This document shows positions 24,895-53,445 of a stretch of 64,000 nt of DNA, one piece after another. The DNA lies in NCBI GenBank assembly GCA_965235115.1, contig OZ249436.1, positions 22,632,001-22,696,000 on the forward strand. Direction: 5' to 3'. Each line of letters opens with the position of its first letter. The stretch's first letter is position 1. The notes under the pieces were generated by a model. The model searched no databases. It was not told the origin of the DNA and was given only the letters and a program-made list of their open reading frames with translations. A program made the position numbers and the translations under genes. This stretch comes from Laetmonice hystrix. Its lineage: Eukaryota.

Positions 24895-26181
24895 TGCACT
24901 TTTTGGAGAGGCTGTCCCGGTGTCCCAATTTCAAATTACCCCCCTGTCAGATTACCGGGGGGTAGCCTGAAGCTAGCTTCAAATTACCCCCCGGTAATCT
25001 GAAGTTGGTTTCAAAAAGCCCCTCGGTTAGGGTTAAGTTGAGTTTAGGGTTAGGTCTGTTTGAATTAACGCGCGAAACATTTTTTATCCGAAGTTTATTT
25101 TTGTAACTTGAAACTGGGGGGGAGGGGGGTAATTTGAAGCTAGCTTCAGATTTCCGGGGGGTAACTTCAATGGCGGGGGGGGAGTAATCTGAAACAGTTA
25201 CACCGGATCCGCGTGAGGATTTTGCCCATAAGGTTGTGGCCCCAGTCGTCGCGATTCTCCAAGATCCTTTGGTCATTAAAGCTTCTCCTGATACCCCAAA
25301 GTTTATCGTTCGGAGCAGCCTCCACGAGAATGTTGGTACCAGTTGCCAGAAGGAAATCTCTGGCATTCCGGTTCTGTTTTAACTTTTCAAGGAGACCCTG
25401 GTAGACCAGGTCTTTCGCAGTTTGCCCAGTCAGAGCAGTTGAAGTTCTTGATTTTGTGGCTCGCAGCTTTGGCAGCACTGGGAGATTTCAGTTGCGTGAT
25501 GTGGTCAGCAGACTTCTGATCATTGAACCTAATGGCTATTTTGGGTTGTATGTATTGTTCTCCATTGGCAAAGTGGACGCCTTCAACAATGAACTCGGCG
25601 CTATAGAAGGTGCTAAGAGGGGAAGCTGAAGAATAGAAGAAGGTGTAATTGTCGATGGTTCTTGTAGCCAGATTCTGTGGTTGGAGCAGATCTGGGAGGA
25701 GGTGTAGGTTTTTAACCGTAGGCCTATATGCTTGAGCATTAATAATCAACTTGTCCGCCACCATCTTGGTTGGTAGACCTCGGTCAATGGTGGCACGGCG
25801 GACAGGGAGAAGTGGACGAATGTTGTTTTCAACTTCACGGGGAAAGTGCTCCTTAATTATCACATTAGAGTTTTTTTGTTTCAGGATGTGGCGACGATAC
25901 CAGATCATGTCACGGTCAAGGCGACTCACAAAAGCGATAATGACAGGTCTGGTCTTCCCCAGAGAGCCACCAAGGCGAAGAAGATCATTAATATACATCC
26001 TGTTGAGGTCAACATCGAGTGAGCTAATAATATCAACCAGCTTGGCTCTCAGCTGGTCTTTAGCTTCGCCTTTCTCGTCTGCAATGTTCAAGAGGATTAG
26101 GTTAATCTTCTTGCTGTGTGCTTCAGTGGCAAGGAGGCTATCGTGTAGCCGTGAGTTCTCAGCTTTGAGTGACTGTACCTC
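24895..26181 (-). pseudogene. LINE ORF1 fused to a NADAR (YbiA-like) domain, frameshifted (copy A)
   Basis: EVQSLKAENSRL...NLILLNIADEKGE...RPVIIAFVSRLDRD...VIIKEHFPREV (L1-like ORF1p), then FFYSSASPLSTFY...GEQYIQ.K...KIKNF, a frameshift near 25425, then GLLEKLKQN...FLLATGTNILVEAAPNDKLWGI...GHNLMGKILTRIR (NADAR signature). Confidence 0.85.
24921..25202. mobile_element. Ginger1-like non-autonomous element inserted in the last NADAR codons of copy A
   Basis: TGT...ACA ends with CCGG duplicated (24917-24920, 25203-25206); copy B has the empty site gatccggga; internal inverted segments and a ggttagggtta tract. Confidence 0.65.
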
Positions 26182-28590
26182 CTGTTGAAGAGCAACAACA
26201 GTTTATATTCCTCAGATATTGACAGAGCATGGAACTACTACTAACCTTAAACTGACATCATTTAGTATCTTTGAGAAAAAACACTTACCTGTCCCCTATA
26301 GTCACCTATTGACATATATATGAAGACACACTGTTACTGCAATACTGCAGTATGATGAGTTTTGTTAACTAAAACTCGGACCGAAGCTAAAACATGATAA
26401 TTAGCGGAGGTTTGAATTTGCCTCCGTTGCCTAAGGCCTCGTCTGGCTAAGGTCAACGAGCTGGTTCTGATACAGCAGTGACGTAACAAATACATGTATA
26501 CATTCATATAATATTATATGAATATTATCGCTAGCCTTCATTTCCATGTTGTTACCTGGACTACTCCGTGGCCGCCTGGGAGAGCCAAATAACATTGGGT
26601 CAACAGACCTCGAGTGACAGCTGGCTATACACAGCCAGGCTATCTAAATTAGACAGTACCAGGCCATGCCCATCACTCGGAGTTAGGGCAGTAAGAACTC
26701 ATCAAGACACCAGTAGTTGAGAATTTGGGTAGCAGAACTACTCCAGCACTGCAGGGGATTTCGTTTATTCGGTAAAATAGTCTGCCTTATTTATGTTGTT
26801 TATTGTATACATCTAACAGATTCTGTTGGGATTTGTTAACATTCTTCTAGCTTCAAACCATCAATTATTCTCTGGGGTATAACGGTCGTGTTGGTAGTTA
26901 AAGCGCCAACATCTACAGCTAGTTTTGGTCCTATGATGATGAATTACCCTGGCTGACGTAGGATATGACATAATTACAGTTACTAATATATTAGTCACAG
27001 ACCTTGTGACTAACTCTTACATTATCAGGGAGGGGGTTAATCTGGACTGAACTAGATTGATATGACGTCAGCCAGTGAAGGGAACACCAGTGCATGATGT
27101 TTATCTAAGCCAGGCTGCCGCGTCCATCACAGGCAGTCACAGGCAGCATTAAAGCTTCTACTGAAAATATATAACCGAATACACTCTGCACATAATTACT
27201 TATAAAGTATAACTCGATATTACCTATAAAGTATAACTTATAACTCTAATCTTAACAATGTGCACACATTATCCCCAGGCTTCATGGCGTCAGTGTCTGC
27301 TGTCCATCTAGGGGCGGATCCGGGGAGGGGGTGCGGGGATTTGCCTAGGGCGGTTGGCATGGTCAGTTCCGAAAGTTCCGAAAGTGCAATGGAGAAAAAG
27401 GACAAAATGGTTGCCTCACTACCCCCCCCCCCCCCCGATCCACCACTGCCATGCATGCTACAAACATGTTTCGCTCGGAGTATATCAATGGCTGCCGTGA
27501 CCAAAGTGTCATCAGTGTCGGCTGTCGGTAACGATTCATACTACCAAAAAATATACCAAAAAAACTATATACCAAATATAGCAATATACCCTCCCCCCCC
27601 CAAAAAAAAACAATATTAGATCATGACATTGTGTTCCATCTGTTCACAGGCGTACATATATAGGCAAAATTAAAACATAAGAATTATTCAGTGTATTAAT
27701 ACTCTCTTCATCCACGCATAAATCTTTCGCCTTTTACTAAAGATTTCCGTGGGGATTTGGAGAATACGGAGCATTTTGGGTTGATTTGGTTACGATGAAT
27801 CACTCATTAGCTTTTGTTGGTTTTCTTCTTCTGGAGTCGTAGGTTGGCCAGTAGCCTATAAATACCCTTGGGACCGGGTCATAATAGGTCATCAGGTTCA
27901 TAGGCTGGCCTTTTTTCAGACTGTCCGTGGCGACCCGGAATATAATAGTTTCACTTGCCTGTGAGGTATCTGGCTTACAGTCTGGGGGTAACTCCAAACA
28001 GACAGCGCAGCGTAGTGTTCCGAGGGATTTAAACCTGTCCTCTGATGATGAAGATTGGACTTTTCAAAAGAAAAGAACGAAAGGTGGTCGGAAGGTGGGG
28101 GGAAAGTTTTCCCTAACGGGGCCGAGTGGCACGAGACCCCCATCTAAGACTGTTAAATAAAAAATCAGGGCGTTCAAAGCCCGTAAAAGTCTCGAGGGTA
28201 GGGCAAGACCCCGTTTTGCTGAAGAAACCTATGTTCATTGAAGATCAAAAGGAAAGTGCAGAAAGCTAGAATTGTGAGGAGCGCAGTTTTTAAGTCTGTG
28301 GACTGGGGTGGTGTTTGTGATGGTGGCTGGCAGGAAACCTCTGTGTTTGAGGTGTCAGAATATGGGCCACCAATCCAAAAAGGTTTGGCCGATATGGAAA
28401 CAATTTGTGGGGTTAGAGTTAGTATAGTAGTTCCAATCTCCCGGCCAACCCGACTTCCCGCCGGGGCCACGTTAATAGTCTTGGGCCAGGTGGGAGGAGG
28501 GGGGGGGTGCTGGAGGGCTGTGAGGAGGGAGGTGGCCGATATGGTAACAGTTCGTGGGGTTAGAGTTAAGGTTTGGGTTAGTAGTAATTG

Positions 28591-28876: not shown

Positions 28877-29649
28877 GTAGTAATTGCAATCCCCAGCAAA
28901 CCTGACTTCCCACCGGGGCAACGTTATTAGCTTGGGACAGGGGGCTGGAGCCTAGGGATGTGGGAAAGTTTGGCCGGTATAGAAACAATTTGTGGGGTTA
29001 GAGTTAAGGTTAAGGGTAGGGTTAGTAGTAGTTCCATTCTTCCAGCGAAGGCGACTTCCCGCCAGGGCAACGTTAATAGCCTGGGACAGGGGGGCTGGAG
29101 GGGTGTGGGGAGGTTTGGTTGAAAAGGAACAATTTATGGGTTAGAGTTAAGGTCATGGTCAGCAATAGTTCCAATCTCCGGGCAAACCCGATTTCCCGCC
29201 GGGGTGACGTTAAAATCCTGGGCCTGGTTGGGGGGTGGGGTGTTGGAGGGGTGTGGGGAAGATTGGCCAATATGGAAATAATTATTGTGGGGTTAGAGTT
29301 AATGTTAAGGTTAGGGTGGGTAGTAGTTCCAATCTCCCAGTGAACCCGACTTCCCGCCGGGGCTAAGTTAATAGCCTGGGCCAGGTGGGGGGGGGGAGGT
29401 GCTGGAGGGGTGTGAGGAGGTTTGGCCGATATGGAAACAATTCGTGGGGTTAGAGTTAAGGTTAGGGTTAGAGTTAGTATAGTAGTTCCAATCTCCCGGC
29501 GAAGCCGACTTCCCGTTGGGGGCCACGTTAACAGCTTGGGACAGAGGTGTGTGTGGGGGTGGCGGGGGCTGGAGGGGTGTGGGGAGGTTTGAGCGATATG
29601 GAAACAATTAATGGGGTTAGAGTTAAGGTTAAGGTTAGGGTTAGTAGTA

Positions 29650-30600: not shown

Positions 30601-33600
30601 TAGTTTCAATCTCCCGGCGAAGCCAACTACCGACTAGGGCCACGTTAATAGCTTGGGACAGGGGGGCTGGAGGGTTGTGATGAGCTTTGGCCGATAGGGA
30701 ACAATTTGTGGGTTAGAGTTAAGGTTAAAGTTAGGCTTAGCAAACCCGACTTCCCATCCTGCCTAGAATGAACAGCCTGATCAAAGAGCTGGTAGTGCCT
30801 GAAAAACGAGGGGACTTCAGGCCAACTTACCTCAAGCACCTTCGCCTTGTGGCTGGGTAGGCAGTCAACATACTCCTTGGCTGCTTATTGCGGTAAACTT
30901 CTACTTTGAAGTTTCTGTACAATTATGAATAAAGGTGCTGACACATATAGATTATCTATTTCTGAGAAACCTGAGTGTAGAACTCACAGAAAACGTATAC
31001 CGTTGAAAATCAAATTAGTGTTAGGTATATACAGCCAATGCAATGGCTAAGGTCAACGACCTGGTTCTGATACAGCAGTGACGTAACAAGGATACATTCA
31101 TATAATATTATATGAATATTATCGCTAGCCTTCATTTCCATGTTGTTACCTGGACTACTCCCTGGCCGCCTGGGAGAGCCAAATAACATTGGGTCAACAG
31201 ACCTCGAGTGATAGCTGACTATACACAGCCAGGCTATATAAATTAGACAGCGCCAGACCATGCCCATCACTCAGAGATCCGTCGCCCAATGTTAGGGTAG
31301 TAAGAACTCATCAAGACACCAGTAGTTGAAAATCTGGATAGAAGAACTACTCCATCACCACATATACCCCCCCCCCCCCTCCTCCAAAAAAAAATAGATC
31401 ATGACATTGTGTTCCAGCTATTAATAGGCGTATATATATATATATATATATATATAGGCAAAATTAAAACATATGAATTATTCAGTGTATTAATACTCTG
31501 GTTTCTCTTCATCCACGCATAAATCTTTCGCCTTTTACTAAAGATTTCCATGGGGATTTGGAGAATACGAAGTATTTTGGGTTGATTTGGTTACGATGAA
31601 TCACTCATTAGCTTTTGTTGGTTTTCTTCTTCTGGAGTCGTAGGTTGGCCAGTAGCCTATAAATACCCTTGGGACCGGGTCATAATAAGTCATTAGCTTC
31701 ATAGGCTGGCCTTTTTTCAGACTGCCCGTGGCGACCCGGAATATAATAGTTTCACTTGCCTGTGAGGTATCTGGCTTACAGTCTGGGGGTAACTCCAAAC
31801 AGACAGCGCAGCGTAGTGTTCCGAGGGATTTAAACCTGTCCTCTGATGATGAAGATTGGACTTTTCAAAAGAAAAGAACGAAAGGTGGTCGGAAGGTGGG
31901 GGGAAAGTTTTCCCTAACGGGGCCGACTGGCACGAGACCCCCATCTAAGACTGTTAAATAAAAAATCAGGGCGTTCAAAGCCCGTAAAAGTCTCGAGGGT
32001 AGGGCAAGACCCCGTTTTGCTGAAGAAACCTATGTTCATTGAAGATCAAAAGGAAAGTGCAGAAAGCTAGAATTGTGAGGAGCGCAGTTTTTAAGTCTGT
32101 GGACTGGGGTGGTGTTTGTGATGGTGGCTGGCAGGAAACCTCTGTGTTTGAGGTGTCAGAATATGGGCCACCAATCCAAAAAGGTTTGGCCGATATGGAA
32201 ACAATTTGTGGGGTTAGAGTTAGTATAGTAGTTCCAATCTCCCGGCCAACCCGACTTCCCGCCGGGGCCACGTTAATAGTCTTGGGCCAGGTGGGAGGAG
32301 GGGGGGGTGCTGGAGGGGTGTGAGGAGGGAGGTGGCCGATATGGTAACAGTTCGTGGGGTTAGAGTTAAGGTTTGGGTTAGTAGTAATTGCAATCTAATT
32401 AAAATTAGATCTTGGTATTCCGCATCTCTCTCGGCTGTGTCAGTGCTGCCTGCGCTCCATACCTAGATCTAAGGACAGCCCATTAGGGGTCACCTCAGGT
32501 TGACCTCTGGATTCAGCCAATCAGCGAGTCGCCTACGAAATCTTCGGTGTGCGCTCGTAGGCATTTTCAACGGCACACTTGAATCTGGGTCAAAGGGCAG
32601 CCTGAGGTGACCCCATACGTTAGATCCTAGTATGGAGCGCATGCGAAATAACTAAGATCTAATTTTAATTAGATTGGTAGTAATTGCAATCCCAGCAAAC
32701 CTGACTTCCCACCGGGGCAACGTTATTAGCTTGGGACAGGGGGCTGGAGCCTAGGGATGTGGGAAAGTTTGGCCGGTATAGAAACAATTTGTGGGGTTAG
32801 AGTTAAGGTTAAGGGTAGGGTTAGTAGTAGTTCCATTCTTCCAGCGAAGGCGACTTCCCGCCAGGGCAACGTTAATAGCCTGGGACAGGGGGGCTGGAGG
32901 GGTGTGGGGAGGTTTGGTTGAAAAGGAACAATTTATGGGTTAGAGTTAAGGTCATGGTCAGCAATAGTTCCAATCTCCGGGCAAACCCGATTTCCCGCCG
33001 GGGTGACGTTAAAATCCTGGGCCTGGTTGGGGGGTGGGGTGTTGGAGGGGTGTGGGGAAGATTGGCCAATATGGAAATAATTATTGTGGGGTTAGAGTTA
33101 ATGTTAAGGTTAGGGTGGGTAGTAGTTCCAATCTCCCAGTGAACCCGACTTCCCGCCGGGGCTAAGTTAATAGCCTGGGCCAGGTGGGGGGGGGAGGTGC
33201 TGGAGGGGTGTGAGGAGGTTTGGCCGATATGGAAACAATTCGTGGGGTTAGAGTTAAGGTTAGGGTTAGAGTTAGTATAGTAGTTCCAATCTCCCGGCGA
33301 AGCCGACTTCCCGTTAGGGGCCACGTTAACAGCTTGGGACAGAGGTGTGTGTGTGGGTGGCGGGGGCTGGAGGGGTGTGGGGAGGTTTGAGCGATATGGA
33401 AACAATTAATGGGGTTAGAGTTAAGGTTAGGGTTAGGGTTAGTAGTATAGGGTGACCAAAAAAACAACCCATACTAAGCCTTCTAAAATCTGTAACTCTT
33501 CATATAATTTGTTCAGGTTGTTCAGATTTGGTATGCCTTATTATGATATGCCTGCTGTCCTTGCACAGTTTTATTCAATTCTAATTCAATTCCTGGTTCG

Positions 33601-41040: not shown

Positions 41041-44000
41041 ATATGAATTATTCAGTGTATTCATACTCTGGTTTCTCTTCATCCACGCATAAATCTTTTA
41101 TCTTTTACTAAAGATTTCCATTCCGATTTGAAGAATACGGAGCATTTTGGGTTGATTTGGTTACGATGAATCACTCATTAGCTTTTGGTGGTTTTCTCTT
41201 TCTGGAGTCGTAGGTTGGCCAGTAGCCTATAAATACCCTTGAGACCGGGTCATAATAGGTCATTAGGTTCATAGGCTGGCCTTTTTTCAGACTCTGTGGC
41301 GACCCGGAATATAATAGTTTATATAGCTTATAGCAGGCGCGTCAGAGTAGGGGGGGCAGGGGGGGCAGTTGCCCCCCCCCCCCCCCCACTTTTTCCTACA
41401 CCAAAAAAAAAGTGAGCGATAATGACGTGTCAACAAAATCGACTTTTATCGCGTTGTAACGCAACATCTCGTGACCTACTTCGGCGCCCTATAGTTCGCT
41501 TGACGATTTCAACGTCACAAGCTCATTGTGACGTAACAGGATCACTGTAGCAGTGGCAGTCGCGGTGCTCTGTGTGAGCTCCCCCGTCTTTCAGTCGTGT
41601 GCAACTTGCGATTCCTTGCGACTGATGCCGTTGCAAGGAAACACGTTTCATCGCTCTGTCTGAGCCCGCCATAAAGGAACCTATAGAGTCTATCCATTGA
41701 AAATCAAAAGGAAAGGGCAGAAAGCCTAATTGAGAGGAGCGCAGTTTTTGTGGACCGAGGTAACCCTATCCTGTGGGATGACTTTGCAGGGCCCTTGGCA
41801 GAATTATTCGATTTGAAGGAGGTGCTCTTTTTGGCCAGTGTTGGGCGGGGTGACGAGGAGCACATTACCCTGATAAAGACAGCCCTCTCAACAAGCGATG
41901 GTTTTTGTGTGAGGGCGACTGTTTCCCAGTTGTGCGGGTGCATTGGAACATCTATACCTAAAACTAGTTGCAGGTCGTGCCGGAAATGTTGGAGGTCCAT
42001 GGAGATATCGTCTCTGAATTCCCACGCTGAGGTTCAGTGCTGCGCGCCTCTCACAGGCAACGGAGGCAAATTCAAACCCCTGCTAATTATCATGTTTTAG
42101 CTTCGGTCCGAGTTTTAGTTAACAAAAATCATCATACTGCACTATTGTAGAAACAGTGGGTTTTCATATATATGTCAATAGGTGACTATAGGGGACAGGT
42201 AAGTGTCAAAGATACTAAATGATGTCAGTTTAAGGTTAGTAGTAGTTCCATGCTCTGTCAATATCTGAGGAATATAAACTGTTGTTGCTCTTCAACAGGA
42301 GGTACGGTCACTCCAAGCTGAAAACTCACGGCGACACGATAGCCTCCTTGCCACTGAAGCGGCGCACAGCAAGAAGATTAACCTAATCCTCTTGAACATT
42401 CCAGAGGAGAAAGGCGAAGCTAAAGACCAGCTGAGAGCCAAGCTGGTTGATATTATTAGCTCACTCGATGTTGACCTCAACAGGATGTATATACTCCTTA
42501 TTCACGCCGCGGCCATTTTGAAACGAAATCGAGGCTCGGAACGCAAACACAGCTGGAGCAGAGCGTGAGGCTCAGTTGGACGCGTCTATAACGTTTGGAC
42601 AAAGAACCTGGAGAATGTTCCTGAAATTAGTCGTAAAATCGTTAATAAATGGGAAACTGGCACCGCTAGACTACCTCAGGCTACCCAGTAAAAGGGTTAC
42701 AGCAACTTTATTGAAGGTTACATCTAGACGGTAGACGGTAAGTTCTTCTATTATCGCTCAACACAGTGTTTGACTGTCACTGTCAGTGTCAAGCTAAAGA
42801 CGCAAAGAAAATTATACTAAATGACTTAGACGCTACCCAGAGGCAAGCGCAGTTTTATCTACCTATTATAGCCTAGCTACTAGGGCCTACGCCACGGCCT
42901 AAGTCAGACCAAAGAATAAAGAGAAATCTTCCCTAATCCGCACCCGGCCGGTGGACTTGCCACGCTAACGTTCTGCCTTAGTGCCGGTGTCGCGGTCTCA
43001 GATCTCCGTGGTCTCAGATCTCCGGGAAGTTAGCTGCATCGCCGTGTGTTCTAGTCTAACTATCCGAAATATCAGCTCTCAGTTGAGTCACACGTAATAA
43101 CTCTCATCTCCTCTACGATACTTGGTTTACAGTTTACCTATCCAGACTGTCCTTTAGTCTTGTTTGGAAGAAAACTCCACCGCCCATCAGGTAGCAGACG
43201 ACCGGAGGTGTGAGCCCAAACAGCGACTCGCGCGTGCTCACTTAGTCAGATTCAGCATCTAAACAATAGGAAACCATGCCCCCGGAGTTCTGAGACCAAC
43301 GGAGATCTGAGACCGCGACACCGGCACCCGGCCCGTGGTGACCTGCCGCCGCAGCTGACGGTGAGCCTCGCCCGAGCCACATCGGTCCGACATCAGATCA
43401 TCTAGATCTAGACATGGGCCGAGGTCACCATGGGCCGAGTTCGCCAGTAGCCAGTAGGTACCCCAGGTCACATTGTTCTTAAAGCAGTAAAGGCTAAAGC
43501 CATAATTATGCTGTCTCATTGAAGTGCAAATTAAACGGTAATTAGTAATACCAAATTATTATTGCTGTTTTGTTTAAATCTTTTCTTTGCATAATTGCAG
43601 CAGTGCCCTCTACATGCGACAGCGGGGCCCTCCTGCGTGGAAAGTATTCAAGCACACTTCTTGAGTCCGTCTGTAGGGATAGCTAGCACCCCTCAATTCT
43701 GTTGAACACGCCAACACCTGAAGACCGACCAGTGCATTGAAGCCGGGAATCATGCGTCGATAGCACATTACGCCATTTTGGCTGGGATCCTGGGGTTGAC
43801 TGAACCGATCCTTGGAATAATTATTTGAATTACCATGGGCATTTTGTATGCATTTTCAGAAATATAAAATTAAGTAAAATTTGGACATAGGACATTCAAG
43901 GACATAATTTAAAGCTACAGCTTTAGTGATTGTGGAACTATAGCAAACGCTGATTTTTGTGTGTCTCCACCGCTTGTGATTGTAATATAATTATTGCAAG

Positions 44001-44165
44001 TAATTGGCTGCCTCTGTGTTGTTCTTTCTGGTATGCAATAACCCCTAAAGATCTTTGGGTACCGTAACAATTTTCTTTCTAAGATTACAGGTGTCGGGTA
44101 GATAACCCACATCATTTTTTCTATTAAATTCTTACAGGCCTCTCAGCACCAAGTGACAACTTTAA

Positions 44166-44585
44166 TAGAGCCAGTCAATTTCCGCGATCACGGAATCGCG
44201 GACGGAATCGCGGAATTTACTATTTGAAACGGAATTTCCTATCTGAAACGGAATTTCCAGTGTAAAACGGAAAATCACGGAAAACGTTTTTTTTACTACT
44301 GGTAATTCCCCAGTCGACCGTAGGCCTATAGGCCTACAGTGTAGCTGGGACCTAGGTTGGCCTGACTGGACCCGCTAGAGGAGTGGGGTGGGAGGGTCAT
44401 GAATATGCTCGAGCTCTTCTTAGAGCAAACAGACTGGACTCGCAAATGTGACAGGTGCGCAGATATGGTTGTGCATTTTTTAGGGCACCCTCTATACTGA
44501 GAAAATACTAAAACGGAAAAAAACGGAATTTTAAAAATTCAAAACGGAATTTCCTGGCAAGGATCACGGAATTTGACTGGGTCTA
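44166..44585. mobile_element. hAT-like MITE with 6-bp TSD
   Basis: TAGAGCCAGTCAATTTCCG.../...CGGAATTTGACTGGGTCTA, flanked by CTTTAA on both sides; aaacgga subterminal repeats. Confidence 0.65.
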
Positions 44586-45355
44586 CTTTAAAAGAGCCCC
44601 GAAGGCACAAAGCCTCCAGCAGGGGGTCTAGGAGCTCTCCCCCAGAAAAAGATAAAAATTAAAGTGCCAAATACGCGTTTTCCTGGAATCTAGGAACAAA
44701 ATCCAAGGTCTTGGAGATAAACCTGATAGACGGACAGGTAAAAAAGATGCGGCACAACATCTTGTTGAAGAAATAGAGGACATAGAGAACATTATTGTAT
44801 AAAAGAGGGCAAGAGGACTGATTTACAAAATAGAGGATTTAGAGGACATCTGGGAGGCCTGTTCTTATTGACTGATGTGTCGGACAGATAACCCACCTCA
44901 TTTTTAAGATTTGCCTAGATATGTCTTTAGAATAACCCATGTCTTTTTTTTTAAATTTCCCCCAAGTATATAGGCCTACACTTTTTTTCAAATAAAAATT
45001 CTCCCGATCAAAAGTAATTTTTCTTCAGTACACTTTAGGCCTAATGAAAAACGGGTGTGAAACCCACCTCATTTAAAAAAAAAGTCTCCGTAGGCCTATA
45101 GATGAGAGGGTGTAATTCTCTTTTTAGTTGCCTATTATTGGTGTAAAAAAAATTCAAGACCGACAGTTCTGAGAGTCTCAGACCCACATTTCTTTTATTC
45201 AGGCTAATAGAGTTTCCACATTCAGAGATGAAATTCATTTGCCACAACCGATAAAACACCCGGTCCGATTTTTGAGTAATTAAATTTTTATGTTGGTGAT
45301 ATATTTATTATGTGCATCCCACATTAGATGAGTGCCTCTGCATCCGAGTCCATCA

Positions 45356-45510
45356 GGGGCCCGTCTTACTAAGGTCTGGTTATTAACGATATCGTTAAGT
45401 TATTATAGAAGTGAATGGGAGGCCACTAGTTAATAACCAGTCGGGCTCTCATTGGCTCCTATGTAATTTAACAATATCGTTAATAACCAGACCTTAGTAA
45501 GACGGGCCCC
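45356..45510. mobile_element. Harbinger-like palindromic MITE truncating the THAP-transposase
   Basis: ggggcccgtcttactaaggtctggttattaacgatat and its reverse complement. Confidence 0.75.
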
Positions 45511-47436
45511 TGATCGTTGTTGCTGTTGGTTGTAAAGCCGCAAAAACAGCCTTAAGTGTTTCATAATTTTTAAAACCAGTATAAAAGTTTATGGCCTGTG
45601 GATCAGTGGAGAATCTTTCAATAAAGAAGATTCTGTTTGGCATCTCTTCAACCTTCTGTTCAAGCCTTTGGATTTCAGCTTCTGTCACTGAAAGTTTTTC
45701 TCCACTGGATGTTGGAGGTGAGGAATAATGATGATCAGGCGTTGCTGCTGTGTGTCCTCGACTGATGCTTCAGGTGCACTTCCAGCACTCGACCCTACGT
45801 GTTGGGGTTTTCTTTATCCGATGGAATATACTGGGTATTGCACCAGGCTTCAGTCTAGTGAGACAGAGTTTTAAGAAAATCCTCGGGCAGAAAATGAACA
45901 GAACATACCCGTGTTGACTCAGACAGCTGAAAAATAAAGCGAAACAATAAATGTTTAGGTCTAAAGAAAATAAATTGGCTTTTGTCCATACCAGTGGAAG
46001 TCTAAGAAAGTAAGAAATCACCCAAGGCCAAGCAAACCCCTTCACATGTAATCATTCGGGAATCCTCGGCCATATCTTTGAAAGTAGCCTCGGGTGAAAT
46101 AGGTGCCATTTTGAGCATTGCATCGCGGGTACATTTAGCCGTGACTCTCGACAGCATGGCAGTGCTTGCAGTATTTTGTCTGCATCAGGCATGGAAGCAA
46201 CTAAAATAGGCCTACAATGCTTTCCCCGAAGTCAGTGGGCAATATTACAATAGTATCATGTCATGATACAACTTAAATTACAACATGATTACAATTAGTC
46301 CTACCATGTGTCGGGCCAGTGTCGTGCATGGGCGCGGCCATATTGCTTCCCAGAATTTGATAAATTACCGTATTGACGCCCATTTAGGTAAACTGGGTGA
46401 TTCATTTTTCTTCTTCAAACGTTCCCCTTCATACCAGAAATTTATATTTGCACATACAACGCCGAAGGAGCAGGTGTCAATAATGCACTACTTCCTGGCT
46501 CGATGGGATATGACGGTTCACTCAGTGCCTCGCTACACACCTCCATTTGGCCGTGTATCTGGTTGCCAAACATGGCCGCTATTCCACCCGAGGGTATATT
46601 CGAATAGCAGGAAGTGACGTCATATGCCCGAGGGAGTCCCTGGGAATGAATTACTAGCCAGAATGTACCAGTGAGAACGTTCCGTTTCTGTGACAGGACT
46701 ACTATTAAAGATTTACCACATTATATAAATTAATAGGGCAGTGGGTGAGCGAGTGGTGATTTAACGCCACGTCAGCTACCGCTAAGGCCATGACATGGTG
46801 AGAACAAGTTGACAGCAGGATAACAAATTCAACCCAAAACTTTAGGTGGAATAAAGAACAAAAGTGTCAGGGTTACTTAATTATACTGCTTGACTACTTG
46901 ACACCAAACTCGCTCACCACAAAGCCTTCTACTGTTCTAGTCAAAGGACAGGACACGCAGGTTGGCTGATGGCCTGGCTGTGCTAGGTCAGGTGAGGAAT
47001 TGTAACTAGGTCTCTAGTAGGTGGGTGATACATTACAAGCACAAACCCTATTGCGACTAGGATAGTCTGCATTCTGTTATTTCTTGTAGTGCCAGGGTAC
47101 CCGCGACCACTGCCCCTCGGAATAGGTTTTAGAACTTTAAGTTTCACGCCAGTATGACAATCAGATACAATCAGATGACAGCCGCCAGCTGATGTTTACA
47201 ATGACAGGCCTAAGCCCAATACCCAAATTCACGTATTATCGTTCATGTCGCCACCCCATAACAAACAGATTTAGCTTCGTTACCTTGAAGTTACGTCCAA
47301 TATCTCTTCTTATTTTCACATTCCATGTCTTTCGGAGTTGGTTGCCTTTCGGAAGACGATGAAATGTTAAGATTTTCTCCTTCTCATGGCTTGAACCGTT
47401 AGCGCAGGACGGCACTCAGCATTGATACGCCGCCAT
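45511..47436 (-). pseudogene. THAP-domain transposase pseudogene (exons 47436-47284 and 45926-45511)
   Basis: MAAYQC*VPSC...FHRLPK...W...IRRD...FK, GT-AG intron, LSESTRVCSVHFLPEDF...RLKPGAIPSIF (C2CH THAP), then DHHYS and INFYTGF; contains a stop and frameshifts. Confidence 0.8.
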
Positions 47437-47506
47437 GTGTAGTTGACAAGTGTTTGCGTTCCGAGCCTCGTTTTCAGTTCAAATGGCGCGCGGCGTGAAT
47501 AAGGTC

Positions 47507-48324
47507 TATTAATGATCTTCTTCGCCTTGGTGGCTCTCTGGGGAAGACCAGACCTGTCATTATCGCTTTTGTGAGTCGCCTTGACCGTGACATGATCTGG
47601 TATCGTCGCCACATCCTGAAACAAAAAAACTCTAATGTGATAATTAAGGAGCACTTTCCCCGTGAAGTTGAAAACAACATTCGTCCACTTCTCCCTGTCC
47701 GCCGTGCCACCATTGACCGAGGTCTACCAACCAAGATGGTGGCTGACAAATTGATTATTAGTGCTCAAGCATATAGGCCTACGGTTAAAAACCTACACCT
47801 CCTCCCAGATCTGCTCCAACCACAGAATCTGGCTACAAGAACCATCGACAATTAGATCTACACCTTCTTCTATTCTTCAGCTTCCCCTCTTAGCACCTTC
47901 TATAGCGCCGAGTTCATTGTTGAAGGCGTCCACTTTGCCAATGGAGAACAATACATACAACACAAAAAAGCCATTAGGTTCAATGATCAGAAGTCTGCTG
48001 ACAACATCATGAAACTGAAAACTCCCAGTGCTGCCAAAGCCGCGAGTCACAAAATCAAGAACCGTTCAACCTCTCTGACTGGGCAAACTGCGGAAGACCT
48101 GGTCCATCAGGGTCTCCTTGAAAAGTTCAAACAGAACCGGAATGCCAGAGATTTCATTCTGAAAACCGGTACCAACATTCTCGTGGAGGCACTCCGAACG
48201 ACAAACTTTGGGATAGGCCCTAGGCCCTATCGAGAGAAGCTTTAATGACCAAAGGATCAACGGGGGCCACAACCTTATGGGCAGAATCCTCACGGGGATC
48301 CGGGACAGACTCCACACAAACTGA
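47507..48324 (+). pseudogene. ORF1-NADAR C-terminal part (copy B)
   Basis: ...VIIKEHFPREV...TIDN*(footprint)YTFFYSSASPLS...GEQYIQHKKAIRFND...GLLEKFKQN...ILKTGTNILVEA...GHNLMGRILTGIRDRLHTN*. Confidence 0.85.
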
Positions 48325-48420
48325 GTAGCCTTATGTTCAACACAGAACACTGCTATACTGGTTTTTCCTTGATATAGACCCCTAAAGCAGGACATCCCGG
48401 CTGCGTCTAGGTATAGGCCT

Positions 48421-49731
48421 GGGTCATTCTCCTGAAAACGTATAAAGTGACGTCACTGCTATTTATATCAGAATATTTCTAGAGAAAATGAACAAGACCA
48501 CTAATTTCGAACGTTATATGATTAATTAATGTCTTTCTTGTAAAAAACACTCTATTTATAGTATATTATGTGGTAATCTAATTTTTTACAGCCACTGAGG
48601 AATCAAAAAATGAGCAAAATCGCTTGTCACTAATGTTGGTCTCCAATGTTGTTTCTTCCTTCAAGCACATTAATAATTAAATGTGCTTGAAGTTACTGAT
48701 ATTTATATAAAAGAATGATGCCTTTAATTAATTTATACAAGAAAAATATTGATCATACACGTTATTCTCTGAAAAATTACACTACAGCGGCCGTCACCGC
48801 ATTTTTTGTCAGTGGTGTTACCAGACACCAGATCTCACATTTGAGATAATAACTGATCCCTGAAGTTCCATTTTTCAACACGAGAGGGCAGTACGACTTC
48901 CTGGCCACAGACACACGTGAAACAGTTAGCGAAGTTTTACAGATTTAAAAAAAAAAAGGAATTATTTTGGTCAAGTCTCTTGAGTATTTTAATTAGGTGT
49001 CAGTAGTGTTACCTTAATATCACCCTTATTATACCAGATATTCTTAAGAAATTACATGTGCAGATTAAGTAAGTGTAGCCCAGTGTCAAAATACAATTAA
49101 CCTTGATGACATGGTCAATGGTCAGGAGCAGTCATTATTTAAACATAAAATGTCAGTGGTGTTACGCGTCAGTGGTGTGACACCTACTGGTAACACCACT
49201 GACATTTAGAGAACAGTCAAGGTTTCTACAGCATGTTAAGTTCTTTTGGATGGTTCAATACTAGATGTTAAGCTGGAAACAAACCGCATGATGCACGACG
49301 CATGCTGTCTGTGATGTTTAAGTCAGTGGTGTTACTTGCCGTCAGTGGTGTTTATGTAATTTGTCAGTGGTGTGACCAGTGATGAAATCACTGCCATAAG
49401 ATCACTTTTTTCAACTACAGGAAATATAGCTATATTTCCTGTCCAGGTGACCTAAGTGGAAAATATTTAGCAACGCACTATTAGAATTCAACATCTTTGC
49501 AGTCAGCATGCACCAAGATTTGCGGGGGTCACACCACTGACAAAAAGGTCATGGGTTAGGAACATTTCCTTCAAAAATTTCAGGGTTGTATGAAGGTGGG
49601 AGCTCAAGTATATATCATTTTAAAATGTTCATATAATGTATGTTTCAGATAATAAAAACGAATTTGATTGGAATAGATTTTTTTTGTTGGTTTTTCGTTT
49701 CGGGTTTTATACGTTTTCAGGAGAATGACCC
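48421..49731. mobile_element. Sola2-like non-autonomous DNA transposon (1311 bp)
   Basis: Perfect 26-bp TIR GGGTCATTCTCCTGAAAACGTATAAA, 4-bp TSD GCCT (48417-48420, 49732-49735), internal gtcagtggtg repeats; absent from copy A. Confidence 0.75.
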
Positions 49732-50475
49732 GCCTATGTGCTCTACCCGGTTCTGATACATCGCCACACTTGTGGTCTGTCTATGGCGTATGGGCATCCT
49801 ATGTATATCTTCTCTACCCGGTTTTATTTATCCACTGCCACCCACGTAGTGTCTATCTTGAGCTTTTTAGGTATATCTAGGCTACTCTACCCGGTTTTTG
49901 ATATATCGCCATACTTATGGACTGTCTATGTGCTTCTCGCACTCTGACATGTGATGACACAATGTTGATACCAGTGCTGGGATGAGCCCATCCCGCACTC
50001 CCAGGAAAGTAGTTCTAATGACGACGCATATCATATGTAAACAAATGCCTCATTGTGCGTCATCAAGTAGTGCCACACACAGATACTCTCACAGAATCTG
50101 TATTTCTCATGATTTATTTTGCATATCATACAGTATTTCTAATAAAAGCTATTAAAAGTGACTTTGCAACGTCGAGAGTGACGGGCGGGTCAAGGAGTTT
50201 TGTTGTCACGTCTTTGCTGGCCTGCTACTGCAACAATGGCACTTGTCCAAAACTATTGTGACGTTACAGTATCCCAGTAATGACAATACGACTGTTCCGT
50301 CATAATATCGTAGTCATTCTAATAGAAACCTAGCCCTGACGTAACAATGGCCCAAAAACCCTATGCGTAGTAATATACATTGCACAATGCTTAACACAAT
50401 GATTAGCTTAGATTAATTTAAGTTAGAAAGGGCTGTTTTTCTCTTGTAATACTGGTTTAAATTGGTAGAAAATGG

Positions 50476-50613
50476 ATATGGCATTGCTCCGAGTGCGAGA
50501 TGGGCCTATCTCAGCACTTGTCAGGCTAGTTCAGACCGAGCTTAAAGGCTCGGCCTGAACTGGCCTGACGCGTGCTGAGATAGGCCCATCTCGCACTTGG
50601 AGCAATGCCATAT
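50476..50613. repeat. 138-bp near-perfect palindrome at the end of an insertion (about 49946-50632)
   Basis: atatggcattgctccgagtgcgagatgggcctatctcagcac... and its reverse complement. Confidence 0.75.
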
Positions 50614-50641
50614 GCACATAATTCTATGTACATATGCCATA

Positions 50642-50818
50642 CAGGGGTCCGTTCCACTAACGAAAGACGTCTTTAGCAAAGACGTCTTTGGAAAGACGTC
50701 TTTGCGGGGCCAATGTTAAAGAATAGGAGCTTAGTGGAACACCCGTCGGCGCAAAGACCTCTTTGGGCTCAGCGACCATCTCAAAGACGTCTTTGGGGCT
50801 TAGTGGAACGGACCCCTG
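50642..50818. mobile_element. Harbinger-like MITE
   Basis: caggggtccgttccactaa/ttagtggaacggacccctg ends; internal aaagacgtcttt palindromes. Confidence 0.7.
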
Positions 50819-51399
50819 CGGTCTCTTCTACTCACTGCCCTACACATGTAGTGGCTATGGGCATCTTAGGTATATGGGCTCCGCCCAGTTTTTGAGCTAC
50901 TATCATATTTATGTAAGCCTACTGACTGTGAGTATCTTAGGTATGTGCTCCACCCGGTTGGTTTCATTGTCCTGCTCAGGCACGTACCCAGGATTGTGCT
51001 TAGAGGGGGGTTCCATCAGGACAAGAAGGCTGCCCGGGGGCTACCTGTGTTTTTGCACCAGTCGACCTGGGGACCGGAGGGGGCCGGGGGGGGGGGGTTC
51101 CGGAACCCCTGGAACCCCCCCCCCCCTGGGTAGGCCTACGTGCCTGCTGCTTATAGCCTAATGTACTGTTTATAAGCATATCACCCCGTTCTTAGTACTA
51201 TAGGCCTATATGTGTCCTATTTAAAGTAATGGCCTATTCTCAAATTTTTCCAGTATCATACTGCCTTATCCTAACTGAAGAGAAACATGTAGGCCTAATC
51301 TTACCAGATTTGCCCCCAAAGCGATCTATTTACTCGTAATTATTGCGAAATTTGATGAGCAAACCTGTACACCTCGATCGGTTCTGAAAAACATGGCAC

Positions 51400-51720
51400 A
51401 CGTTTTTCAGTAGGATGTTTACAATCATCCACTCACAGAAACGTGACGTCGTACACACTTTCACTTTGAGCCAAGCACTGTCCCCCAAGATGCATTGCAC
51501 TAGACGAAAGCGAGGCTCGCACCTGCCCTGCTGGTGGCATGTTCCCGGTATGTCCAAACCGTCATACCTCCCGCAGAACACATTTCATCGGCCTTCGACC
51601 AGCTTAAGGCACCGACCCAAAGTACCGTCATTCTTTTTATGGAATACATTTCCAACCAGTGCGGCAGATGGTCAACCTACGACTGGTCTATTTACGGCCG
51701 TGCACGGTGAGTACGCCGGG
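51400..51720 (+). pseudogene. MULE transposase fragment
   Basis: Frameshifted HFHF/SQAL then LPAEHISSAFDQL...MEYISNQ...WSTYDWSIYGR, resembling animal MULE transposases. Confidence 0.5.
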
Positions 51721-52528
51721 CGGTAGCGCCGGGCGGCCAGCCGCGAGGCGAGGCCCAGGCGGCAGAACAGGAGATTACAACCGGTGAAACCCTCTTATGC
51801 TGGATTGTCAACAGCAAAACATATCACCCTCGGAGGCCCACTCGTCCCCCCTCCTGTCTACATAATGTGAATATGACAGAAAGGCCTATCGTTGTATTAT
51901 AAAATATGAGTTAGGTCTGGGCTACTTTGCTGGGTGATCGAAATAGGCTTGCTGAACGATGAGGACGCCATCTTGTTTGGCTGCGTCATCAGACACTGCA
52001 TAGAAAGTCACGTGAGGGAATCCCCTTCCAGTTCAAATCCAATGGTGGTGGAATCATTGCACGTTTTTCTTTCGATTGATTGCGATTTTCGGTTATACTG
52101 CAAGTAGCACGCAGGTATTGTCCCTATTGGACATGGCAAAAATTTGTACACGTCTTTGGTAACATGCAGGAAGTAATATTAGAAAATTTTCCTACATTCC
52201 ACGCTATACTATGACTTTAACCTGGATATGGTCTCTTCAAGCTACTCAAAATATTACGTAATTGGTTTGGTTGTTGACGGGTATTTTTCGAAGTTTACCT
52301 GACCGTGAGGGCGTCTTAGTCCTTGCCAAATGGTACTTTATTGTTCTTGGCCTCTTTCTAGCTCTTGTGATATTTTGTCTCGCTACTTAACTGCTTGTTC
52401 ATTGTGAACATTGTGTGCCCAATCATGTTTACTCTATTATCTGTTAAGGATGAAAACTCAAGTTTACTCTATTGAAATTTCTTACTCACACTGCCACTCT
52501 CTAACACTACTGATCCTTATACCTCCTA

Positions 52529-53445
52529 ATGGATAATCCAGGTTTTAAAATTGCAACGTTAATACGAATGGACTTGCCTCAAAAGAGAAACGCCTATCCA
52601 TTTTTCGTAACCTAAAAGGTAAGCGCTTCGACGTTATTCTCTTAGAAGAAACTCGTACAACTCTCAACTCTGAATCTGTTTGGCAGAACGAATAGGACAA
52701 CGATAAGTTGTACCTGTCCCATCACGCTAGCAACAGCAGTGGTGTGGCTACACTTATTGGCAAAGATTTTGATTGTAAGATTATCAAAAGTACAGCTGAT
52801 GCTAATAGTCGCTTCGTAATTCTTGATCTTGAATATAAGAACACCATCTATACTATCATTAACTTCTAGGCACCTACCAGAGATCATGAAAAATATCAGA
52901 TAGATCCCCTTCGAAAATGTTTGCAACTATTAGCTGAATTTAAAAGTGAAAAAGTCATCTTTGCAGGTGATTTTAATCTCTGCTTGACCCCTAAAATCGA
53001 CAAGGGACCCAATAATCTAGACACAAATAACGACCTACTCTTCAGGAAGGAGGCTATCTTCATGATTCAAGCCTACGATATAATTGATGCTTAGCGTATC
53101 CAAAACTCTCAAATAAGAATGTACAAATGACACAGAGGTGTTAAAATGTCAAGGCTCGATTACATTTTCAAAAACGAACATCTTGATAACTCCGTCACGC
53201 GCGCAGACATTATTCTTGGCCTTAGATCCGATCATAATATTACCTATGTTTCACTCGATAAGTCAATGTGCAGTGATAGGGGGCCTGGTTTGTGGAAATT
53301 TAACTGCAGTTTACTACACGATACTGATTGTTACCTTACTCAAAGAAATTATTGTCAAAAAAGTGAATGAAGTCGCTCGTCTCAGCGACAAAGGACTCAC
53401 CTTGGAGCTGGTCAAAATGGAAATTAGAAGTTTTACCATTACCCC
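52529..53445 (+). pseudogene. ORF2 APE endonuclease (copy B), L1/Tx1 clade
   Basis: MDNPGFKIAT..NGL...DVILLEETR...SGVATLI...IFAGDFN...SRLDYIF...RSDH...RGPGLWKFNCSLL...KMEIRSFTI, with stops and frameshifts; no RT follows. Confidence 0.9.

Follow-up and report, generated by a model that had tools for sequence, protein, structure and literature searches.

In the genome of the annelid Laetmonice hystrix, autonomous LINE retrotransposons do carry an ORF1 protein fused to a NADAR domain, and this fusion is maintained by selection. The window analyzed here (the whole stretch of 64,000 nt on contig OZ249436.1, positions 22,632,001 to 22,696,000) contains two old, broken and dead copies, A and B, of a poly(A)-type LINE carrying such an ORF1-NADAR, and a sister family of these copies (ORF1 identity 61%) has intact copies in this genome and has moved there recently. 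As the original prediction held, the ORF1 encoded by each window copy is of the L1 type (coiled coil, RRM and CTD) and runs into NADAR (Pfam E-values from 1e-19 to 3e-21), followed in both by a spacer and an APE endonuclease, the latter detected by tblastn with L1-like ORF2s.

Copy A lies on the reverse strand and begins with a 5′ leader that copy B also has (26203..26432; 25991-26432 and 42492-42055 are 94.4% identical), in which no recognisable start codon or ORF1 N-terminus was found, the tblastn match with the intact ORF1 P0001 starting at residue 111. The leader is followed by an open frame of 271 aa (25387..26202 in the ORF list, read from 26202 to 25387) in which the last part of the coiled coil, the RRM and the CTD are followed by the first half of NADAR (Pfam PF08719, positions 2-87 of 163, E 7.1e-9); the frame shows 61% amino acid identity to residues 111-379 of P0001 (tblastn). 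The second half of NADAR, with LVEAAPNDKLWG and NLMGKILTRIR, is found in a second frame on the same strand (25167..25487; PF08719 positions 88-159 of 163, E 1.4e-19), and a single frameshift near 25424-25402 joins the two halves, residues 369-442 matching at 25424-25203 (tblastn). All the motifs originally quoted were recovered from the frames of copy A, that is NLILLNIADE, RPVIIAF, IKEHFP, FFYSSASPLSTFY, GEQY, KLKQN and TGTNILVE besides the two just mentioned. The span first assigned to the feature, 24895-26181, does contain the ORF1-NADAR; it also takes in about 270 bp of spacer, and the coding part is properly 25167-26202. Downstream, copy A has a non-coding spacer of about 1.1 kb without any ORF with a family match (24043..25166, reverse strand), with internal direct repeats (24422-24481/24635-24694 and 24484-24595/24628-24719), and it ends in the first ~95 aa of the ORF2 APE endonuclease, with an internal stop (23737..24042, reverse strand). 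This piece is 34-36% identical to residues 3-96 of three L1-like ORF2s (tblastn), and the Pfam match to Exo_endo_phos is weak (E 0.058).

Copy B, on the forward strand, is 91.5% identical to copy A over 816 aligned columns. The leader and ORF1 residues ~111-185 (42055..42492, by match to copy A and tblastn) are separated from the rest of ORF1 by a foreign insert of 5.0 kb that does not belong to the LINE (42493..47503, reverse strand, defined by the junction sequences and Pfam); it resembles a DNA transposon, with terminal inverted repeats of ~55 bp and a THAP-domain ORF at 47415..47236 (Pfam THAP, E 2.7e-5). The remaining ORF1 (RRM and CTD) and NADAR follow at 47504..48303 (PF08719 positions 2-132 of 163, E 3.1e-21; tblastn residues 181-414); an in-frame stop interrupts this part at 47853-47855, and NADAR is degenerate at its C-terminal end. 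The spacer of this copy (48304..52554) is interrupted and patchy, and short matches to the copy A spacer were found at 48333-48401, 49735-49936, 50849-50976 and 52226-52815. The ORF2 endonuclease (52555..53440), recognized over residues ~9-304 with six L1-like ORF2s at 26-34% identity (tblastn), is broken and has 6 stops in straight translation. No reverse transcriptase of either copy was detected within the window by tblastn with the L1-like ORF2s, and neither copy has its own 3′ end.

The flanks of copies A and B are co-duplicated at other loci of the same subfamily in the genome, and for this reason the two window copies do not count as independent proofs of the NADAR-ORF1-endonuclease linkage; the independent proof is given by intact elements elsewhere in the genome. 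Inverted pairs of this subfamily with co-duplicated non-LINE flanks occur at four loci (on C1, C10 and two on C13), no RT-bearing copy of it was found in the genome, and splice-like GT..AG signals stand immediately upstream of the copy A open frame, all of which would suit fragments of a pseudogene family, or of a host region that underwent segmental duplication, containing an ORF1-NADAR-like gene, rather than LINE insertions. We consider this very unlikely, since the order ORF1-NADAR, spacer, endonuclease is identical to that of intact mobile families, the window copies contain stops and frameshifts, and an old insertion that was later segmentally duplicated accounts for the pairs; the LINE origin is thus kept. 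Sequence-specific insertion into a repeated target is a feature of the Tx1 clade, and copies A and B flank a U5 snRNA array; site-specific insertion into this array was rejected because their orientations are opposite and the active family has inserted at differing targets.

This active relative is 6.7 kb long, with copies 98.6-99.6% identical to one another, and has both a 446-aa ORF1-NADAR (P0001) and a 1249-aa EN-RT ORF2 open, the ORF1 being open over residues 1-446 in six genomic copies. A poly(A) end was present in six of the six copies examined and a target-site duplication of 10-16 bp in four of them, at unrelated sites; the four duplications are unrelated sequences, without a fixed target. 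The NADAR of P0001 reaches 137.9 bits (E 4.7e-40, PF08719 positions 9-162 of 163) with a Pfam cut-off of 35.1, which the pieces in the window also exceed (36.6, 71.3 and 76.8 bits). Its ORF2 matches RVT_1, Exo_endo_phos and zf-RVT in Pfam, and among solved structures human L1 ORF2p is the nearest (E 2.1e-106, residues 4-880). The APE endonuclease, the reverse transcriptase, the C-terminal zinc knuckle and the proximity to L1 ORF2p place this ORF2 in the L1/Tx1 group, of whose features the window copies keep the endonuclease alone. ORF1 precedes the EN-RT ORF2 within one transcription unit, as is characteristic of an L1-type ORF1p. Rfam recognised no known RNA family in the intact element, spacer included, and a search of public sequencing runs with the element listed 4 runs of one study, none of them listed as RNA.

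No Pfam L1 ORF1 profile, which we take to be Transposase_22 and its relatives, was listed at E≤0.1-1 for the window frames or the intact ORF1, so that the L1-like assignment made earlier, although not borne out by profiles, rests on the fold. In the AF2 model of P0001 (mean pLDDT 83.9), a helix spanning residues 68-141 precedes beta-alpha-beta domains at 144-291, and Foldseek matched the model to the human L1 ORF1p trimer 2ykp (E 6.7e-8, TM 0.63), with further L1 ORF1p matches among 2ykp/2yko/2ykq (E 7e-8 to 3e-6) and to the RRM in 2w7a (TM 0.65), in agreement with a coiled coil, RRM and CTD like those of human L1 ORF1p. The same search matched 8bau with an E-value of 9.2e-11 (TM 0.79, rmsd 2.0 Å) and 2b3w with a TM of 0.74; by sequence, the PDB matches of P0001 were likewise 8bau, a Phytophthora NADAR with ADP-ribose (E 4.9e-12), and YbiA 2b3w (E 5.1e-10). 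The position corresponding to E125 of the Phytophthora nicotianae NADAR is described as Glu in the YbiA subfamily, Asp in the BC4488/DarG1 subfamily and His in phage NADARs (PMC11543638), and this YbiA mark, Glu, is found in 17 of 18 families, with Lys in the remaining one. As regards anatomy, the ORF1p of these LINEs is almost certainly of the L1 type (coiled coil, RRM, CTD), with a complete NADAR of the YbiA subfamily fused to its C-terminus. We rejected a DarG1 antitoxin of the BC4488 subfamily, as the position holds Glu instead of Asp and the domain is fused to a LINE ORF1p; no ORF for a transferase, the partner of DarT1 type, was found inside the elements examined.

The linkage of ORF1-NADAR with EN/RT extends well beyond the locus, to the intact relative and at least 17 further families in the same genome. 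A genome-wide search for ORF1-NADAR gave 96 scored matches from 730 candidates, and 17 further loci, selected for matching through the C-terminus, all had a NADAR match (17/17, Pfam E from 1.5e-26 to 1.8e-40), with EN and/or RT ORFs following in 15 of them. These ORF1s sit not only on L1-like ORF2s: they are also joined to two non-L1 ORF2 types, for which the E-value to L1 ORF2p in the PDB search is ~1e-16, on the RT alone, similar to that to R2 for one of the types. A homologue search with ORF2 gave hardly any named proteins. The presence of the same ORF1-NADAR on these different ORF2s indicates that the module has been exchanged between LINE backbones. In the families L021 and L028, whose ORF1-ORF2 linkages are each confirmed in several copies by match tables, the ORF1 cores are 60% identical and the ORF2s 19%. 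Across families, NADAR distances correlate with RRM-CTD distances (r = 0.73, a value reached in 0 of 2000 permutations), and the correlation of ORF1 with ORF2 distances is r = 0.13. Among public proteins, 701 clusters (50% identity) were matched at E≤1e-30, and in 138 of the best 150 of these 701, inspected by eye, RRM-CTD and NADAR fell within one matched stretch.

The residues E43, K50, E125, D130 and W133 of the P. nicotianae NADAR, described as conserved ADP-ribose-binding and catalytic residues (PMC11543638, whose numbering is followed), correspond to E323, K330, E403, D408 and W411 of P0001, and the alignment shows all five to be identical. The conservation of the catalytic Glu and Asp, on which the original prediction depended, holds across families: E323 and W411 are present in 18/18, E403 and D408 in 17/18 and K330 in 15/18, the exceptions being Met (two families) and Arg (one) at Lys330, Lys at E403 in one family and Asn at D408 in one. 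In the translation of copy A, compared with P0001, Ile takes the place of Lys330, and in 15 external homologues (24-46% identity) the catalytic residues are invariant or nearly so. NADAR is also the most conserved part of ORF1p, with a mean pairwise identity over 136 pairs of 36.3%, compared with 32.8% for the RRM-CTD and 20.1% for the N-terminus. The dN/dS analysis proposed for the domain gave part of the answer: pN is well under pS (0.20-0.24 vs 0.74-0.88 in the three closest family pairs), while a numeric ratio was not obtained, because synonymous sites are saturated (pS 0.69-0.93) and Jukes-Cantor dS is undefined in most partitions, and pN and pS are given instead. The pair L023/L027 was set aside as uninformative, being within one family and with the NADAR end of L027 frameshifted. 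Judged by these alignments, NADAR is under purifying selection in many families, and the residue pattern suggests that the LINE NADAR is probably catalytically active.

If so, ORF1p, which coats the element RNA, would bring an active N-glycosidase to the RNP. The enzyme's most likely task there would be to strip ADP-ribose from guanines, and possibly from cytosines, in the RNA of the LINE, in the cDNA being made or in the target DNA at the nick, so that these can still serve as templates. The likeliest purpose would be to reverse an ADP-ribosylation of nucleic acids by which the host would restrict retroelements and RNA viruses, and the LINE NADAR would then do in eukaryotes what the orphan NADAR AdfN does for phages. 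Among hydrolases, NADARs are described as alone in reversing ADP-ribosylation at guanosine in RNA (PMC11833690), YbiA-type and animal (sponge) NADARs are reported to reverse both G- and C-ADP-ribosylation (PMC12945103), orphan NADARs serve phages against DarT1 (PMC11825919), and NADAR inserts occur in invertebrate nidoviruses (PMC11848433, PMC12377751). Against this, the founding member YbiA is described as acting on small riboflavin intermediates and not on nucleic acid (PMC11543638), and the DNA activity has been worded as shared "outside of YbiA-like proteins" (PMC11825919). By analogy with these systems, the chances seem evenly balanced that the NADAR in ORF1p enzymatically removes ADP-ribose from nucleic acid, and base-linked ADP-ribose on nucleic acid may equally well be its substrate or not; counter-defence as its purpose is a more tentative proposal.

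An active N-glycosidase could also serve the element's own RNA or nucleotide handling, for instance by acting on an NAD- or ADP-ribose-derived group on an RNA intermediate, or by clearing reactive ribosyl-amines near the RNP. The conserved catalytic residues, the hydrolysis of small N-glycosides described for YbiA (PMC11543638) and the absence of a match for a host guanine transferase with the PF22596 and PF01375 profiles would agree with such a role, which we nevertheless regard as rather improbable, since no known step of target-primed reverse transcription needs such a reaction, most LINE clades are without NADAR, and the acquisition of NADAR in parallel by phages, nidoviruses and a Gypsy lineage is easier to reconcile with conflict than with housekeeping. 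A non-catalytic domain that binds ADP-ribose or a nucleotide, and either steers the RNP to ADP-ribosylated chromatin or DNA breaks or regulates ORF1p, might explain the Met and Arg replacements of Lys330 in three of the 18 families; it is still less probable, because the catalytic Glu pair is unnecessary for a mere binder and the near-invariance of the Glu, Asp and Trp positions is maintained across families that are just 24-63% identical.

Extending the counter-defence proposal, lophotrochozoans (annelids, molluscs) would ADP-ribosylate guanine or cytosine of retroelement and RNA-virus RNA or cDNA through a putative transferase, and LINEs of several clades together with invertebrate nidoviruses would answer with a NADAR eraser, in LINEs welded to ORF1p and passed between clades, mirroring DarT1/AdfN; as a whole, and being drawn from analogy, this scenario is doubtful. 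The Scabin/pierisin-like (PF22596) and cholera-toxin-like Enterotoxin_a (PF01375) profiles gave no match for a host transferase in the L. hystrix genome, a result that is not evidence of absence, since the controls likewise matched nowhere and genes split into exons may escape such a search. By COX1, the host is an annelid, not a mollusc like the clam of CARP-1.

According to PMC11125620, what NADARs do physiologically in animals is unknown. In the present genome, a NADAR whose catalytic residues are intact is strongly constrained within the RNA-coating protein of many active retrotransposons, has been swapped with its ORF1 between unrelated LINE backbones and has like architectures in hundreds of public protein clusters. 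If erasure and a need for it in retrotransposition were true, they would suggest that invertebrates have an immunity based on nucleic-acid ADP-ribosylation that has gone unrecognised, and an eraser enzyme would be added to the few accessory activities of ORF1p; if not, this is a well-documented, ordinary accessory domain, already reported for oysters.

The ORF1-NADAR architecture is in fact already catalogued and not new. The original prediction knew of no description, whereas a YbiA-family NADAR in ORF1 of several Crassostrea gigas Tx1 LINEs from Repbase is reported in PMC12477816, the only paper in which a literature search, with subscription papers and Repbase itself outside its reach, found a link between NADAR and LINEs. 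By that published description, the oyster elements likewise have NADAR inside ORF1 of a lophotrochozoan L1/Tx1-group LINE; the elements described here differ in their annelid host and in the presence of the module also on two non-L1 ORF2 types. The printed C. gigas account takes one paragraph and does not deal with catalytic residues, selection, activity or copy state. The same source describes lineage IV Gypsy elements of Ectocarpus that have also captured a YbiA-family NADAR; unlike the LINEs, these are LTR elements of a brown alga with the NADAR at the N-terminus of Pol, and since that domain is reported there to look bacterial by BLAST, the capture was independent. An ORF1p with a hydrolytic enzyme domain is also known from CR1/L2-type LINEs (PMC3905857), where the domain is described as an SGNH esterase, different in fold and chemistry and lipid-related.

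The best sequence and fold matches, the P. nicotianae NADAR (8BAU) and E. coli YbiA (2B3W), share the Glu/Lys/Glu/Asp/Trp set and the YbiA-subfamily Glu with the LINE domain; unlike it, they are free single-domain proteins, and the known substrates of YbiA are riboflavin intermediates. AdfN of T4-like phages (PMC11825919) is also the NADAR of a genetic parasite and strips ADP-ribose from the parasite's own nucleic acid, offering a mechanistic model for the LINE domain, from which it differs in being a free protein of a bacterial virus, of a non-YbiA subfamily and opposed to DarT1, whereas the LINE NADAR is fused to an RNA-binding protein. Invertebrate nidoviruses, of which Pacific oyster nidovirus 1 is one (PMC11848433, PMC12377751), are RNA-templated parasites that have gained NADAR too; unlike LINEs, they are RNA viruses with NADAR and macrodomain inserts within the replicase pp1a/pp1ab. 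By analogy, the repeated gains of NADAR in nidoviruses point to a putative host pressure shared with LINEs.

An ORF1 running into a NADAR domain was found in both LINE relics of the window, with every motif quoted in the original prediction present and Pfam NADAR matches in each copy. Copy A is a minus-strand copy, in which a 271-aa open frame (26202..25387; ORF list) leads from the end of a coiled coil through an RRM-like core, reading NLILLNIADE, RPVIIAF and IKEHFP, to FFYSSASPLSTFY...GEQY, its final 73 residues matching positions 2-87 of the 163 of the NADAR profile (E 7.1e-9). The second NADAR half lies one frameshift on (25487..25167, minus strand; positions 88-159, E 1.4e-19) and is followed by a 1.1-kb spacer without coding signal and by an APE endonuclease cut short after its first ~95 residues (24042..23737, minus strand; Pfam, tblastn), where the copy terminates. 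No ORF1 N-terminus could be located for this subfamily. A consensus-like splice donor, CAG/GTAAGT, lies directly upstream of the open frame (26288-26182, minus strand), as does a pyrimidine-rich acceptor (..TTCAACAG/G) whose end coincides with that of the span first predicted.

Copy B, on the plus strand and 91.5% identical to copy A, consists of the leader and a first ORF1 part (42055-42492), the ORF1-NADAR remainder (47504-48303; NADAR positions 2-132, Pfam E 3.1e-21), interrupted by an in-frame stop codon (47853-47855), a patchy spacer between NADAR and endonuclease, and endonuclease residues ~9-304 (52555-53440; tblastn). Reverse transcriptase is absent from both copies within the 64-kb window, and both are dead. 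The 5.0-kb insert interrupting copy B ORF1 (42493-47503) is bounded by ~55-bp terminal inverted repeats starting CTCCTTATTCACGCCGCG, contains a THAP-domain ORF (minus strand, 47415..47236; Pfam E 2.7e-5) and is probably a DNA transposon. An 81-bp tandem repeat (3.3 copies, 88% matches; 53619-53882) lies just past the endonuclease remnant.

Across the 627-Mb assembly (window at C1:22632001-22696000) this subfamily was found only as decayed pieces, which form inverted pairs 10-22 kb apart with common flanks (one pair each on C1 and C10, two on C13), and are segmentally duplicated repeat structure. Since the non-LINE flanks are co-duplicated, segmental duplication accounts for at least part of the subfamily's spread, and the two window copies are for the same reason insufficient as proof of linkage, for which the independent proof is a sister family. 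Flank segments also recur in tandem on C3 (6.26-6.30 Mb). Between the inverted copies A and B lie three U5 spliceosomal snRNA genes (27701-27802, 31493-31603 and 35302-35412, plus strand; Rfam 54-55 bits, cut-off 40), arrayed in tandem as ~3.8-kb units, each also with a 158-bp tandem repeat (28887-29646, 32690-33444, 36489-37246). Two tRNA genes are at 17481-17554 (plus strand; Rfam 67.9 bits) and 18287-18358 (minus strand; 57.7 bits).

The sister family (61% aa identity to the window subfamily in ORF1, 68-69% in DNA) is 6.7 kb long, carries an intact 446-aa ORF1 and a 1.33-kb spacer, and is recently mobile: its copies are 98.6-99.6% identical, all six examined have a poly(A) end, and four of these are flanked by 10-16-bp target-site duplications that are unrelated in sequence. 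ORF1 is open over residues 1-446 in six genomic copies, and of four copies with ORFs listed, two have an intact ORF2 (1249 or 1251 aa). Pfam identified Exo_endo_phos, RVT_1 and zf-RVT in ORF2, to which human L1 ORF2p is closest among solved structures (E 2.1e-106, residues 4-880); ORF2 is L1-like and may be L1 proper or Tx1. Here and in copy A the spacer between ORF1 and ORF2 is unusually long, compared with ~220-830 bp in other families; the spacer of locus L011 contains two ~400-bp direct repeats 92% alike (6010-6779, locus coordinates, minus strand), and shorter ones occur in that of copy A (24422-24719). Two unrelated active families, L009-L012 and L016-L017, have AAGATGGCG or AAAATGGCG in their first ~20 bases (within the 5′-terminal 25 bases of the elements), reminiscent of the 5′-terminal YY1 core site of human L1.

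The intact ORF1 matches Pfam NADAR over positions 9-162 (E 4.7e-40) and, by sequence, two NADARs of known structure, 8bau (E 4.9e-12) and YbiA 2b3w (E 5.1e-10). AlphaFold2, given 15 homologues, modelled residues 68-141 as a long helix, 144-291 as two beta-alpha domains and 294-446 as a helical domain (mean pLDDT 83.9). Foldseek aligned this last domain to 8bau (TM 0.79, rmsd 2.0 Å) and the helix with both beta-alpha domains to 2ykp, the trimer of human LINE-1 ORF1p (E 6.7e-8, TM 0.63). The predicted L1 likeness of ORF1 thus holds by fold: Pfam L1-ORF1 profiles gave no match in the window frames or the intact ORF1, which leaves fold and position as the basis for calling the protein ORF1p.

In the Phytophthora enzyme, PMC11543638 describes E43, K50, E125, D130 and W133 as contacting the distal ribose and pyrophosphate; their aligned counterparts in the intact ORF1p are E323, K330, E403, D408 and W411. 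The same paper names E125 as the YbiA subfamily hallmark and reports that guanine de-ADP-ribosylation by the E. coli C7 NADAR suffers when the equivalents of E43, K50 and E125 are mutated. These residues are conserved across families, being kept in 18, 15, 17, 17 and 18 of 18 families (24-63% identical); the exceptions are K330 to Met (two) or Arg (one), E403 to Lys (one) and D408 to Asn (one). In 15 public homologues all five show little or no variation. For the three family pairs that lie closest, pN of the NADAR part is 0.20-0.24 against a saturated pS of 0.74-0.88, and equals or falls below that of the RRM-CTD (the core with the C-terminal domain). With mean identities of 36.3% (NADAR), 32.8% (RRM-CTD) and 20.1% (N-terminus), NADAR is the most conserved third of ORF1p, a pattern suggesting a working enzyme, not a passenger.

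A six-frame genome search with the intact ORF1 gave 730 first-look candidates and 96 scored matches, many of them open frames of 420-480 aa aligning through the last residue. Twenty loci, picked for matching to the C-terminus, represented 17 further families; with this preselection, NADAR matched in all 17 ORF1s (Pfam, E 1.5e-26 to 1.8e-40). EN and/or RT ORFs lie downstream in 15 of the 17, ten of these with a single ORF2 of 968-1269 aa, which together with the intact sister copies bears out the claim that NADAR belongs to the element. Three ORF2 types were distinguished, all in elements terminating in poly(A): L1-like (~1240-1270 aa, mostly with zf-RVT), ~970 aa and ~1040-1100 aa. The latter two are only 16-20% identical to the L1-like type and match L1 ORF2p in the RT only (E ~1e-16); R2 matches the ~970-aa type about as well (6.6e-15) and the ~1040-1100-aa type more weakly (2.4e-9). 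In one ~970-aa-type family, three copies at separate loci have both of their ends in common.

ORF1 cores of L021 and L028 are 60% identical and their ORF2s 19%, while L011, L026 and L028 have ORF2s 62-64% and ORF1 cores 32-38% identical. Both odd linkages (L021, L028) are real: several genomic copies align unbroken across the ORF1-ORF2 junction. ORF1 and ORF2 distances correlate at r = 0.13 (55 pairs), and judged from these comparisons the two histories disagree; within ORF1, NADAR and RRM-CTD distances correlate at r = 0.73 (0 of 2000 permutations as high). The simplest reading would be one old ORF1-NADAR fusion, later moved between LINE backbones as a unit. Among public proteins (1.84 billion representatives) 701 match at E≤1e-30, and in 138 of the best 150, counted by eye, one stretch covers both halves. 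A feature-based atlas contains three NADAR clusters (415-489 aa), for two of which the few taxon records are annelid. Five public proteins, P0269 (4240 aa), P0287 (1075 aa), P0363 (1580 aa), P0370 (923 aa) and P0300 (682 aa), carry 3-7 tandem NADAR domains, 28-37% identical to that of LINE ORF1, and no other Pfam family; host genes, viruses or merged gene models are candidate origins.

By sequence and model, then, ORF1p, in predicted fold the RNA-coating, trimer-forming protein of L1, is shown to carry a NADAR with an intact active site. NADARs remove guanine N2 ADP-ribose in DNA, and YbiA-type and sponge NADARs, according to PMC12945103, also reverse cytidine ADP-ribosylation. An orphan NADAR of T4-like phages clears DarT1 marks off phage DNA (PMC11825919), and invertebrate nidoviruses, one from oysters, have NADAR inserts (PMC11848433, PMC12377751). 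By analogy, ORF1p would deliver the eraser to LINE RNA, cDNA or target DNA, which NADAR would keep free of base ADP-ribose. A host transferase would be the likeliest reason for such a domain. Against this, PF22596 (Scabin-like) and PF01375 (Enterotoxin_a) profiles found none in this genome, a weak search whose controls gave no signal, and YbiA itself acts on small molecules (PMC11543638). For the oyster ORF1 NADARs, PMC12477816 suggests that they help to process the RNA intermediate. LINE ORF1-NADAR makes the role of animal NADARs directly testable.

The original observation is confirmed and its interpretation partly supported: the architecture holds and is already known, and the function may be as proposed by analogy. 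The original prediction knew of no description of the architecture, yet PMC12477816 states that Repbase ORF1 proteins of several Crassostrea gigas Tx1 LINE families appear to contain YbiA-family NADAR domains; the open-access literature searched yielded no further paper on NADAR in LINEs. New here are the annelid host (COX1 92% identical to a Phyllodocida cluster) and the intact, recently mobile copies, together with the active-site conservation and purifying selection, the apparent exchange of the module between L1-like and non-L1 LINEs, and the family size in public data. The Crassostrea gigas Tx1 LINEs are alike in having NADAR inside ORF1 and differ in their host, a mollusc there and an annelid here.
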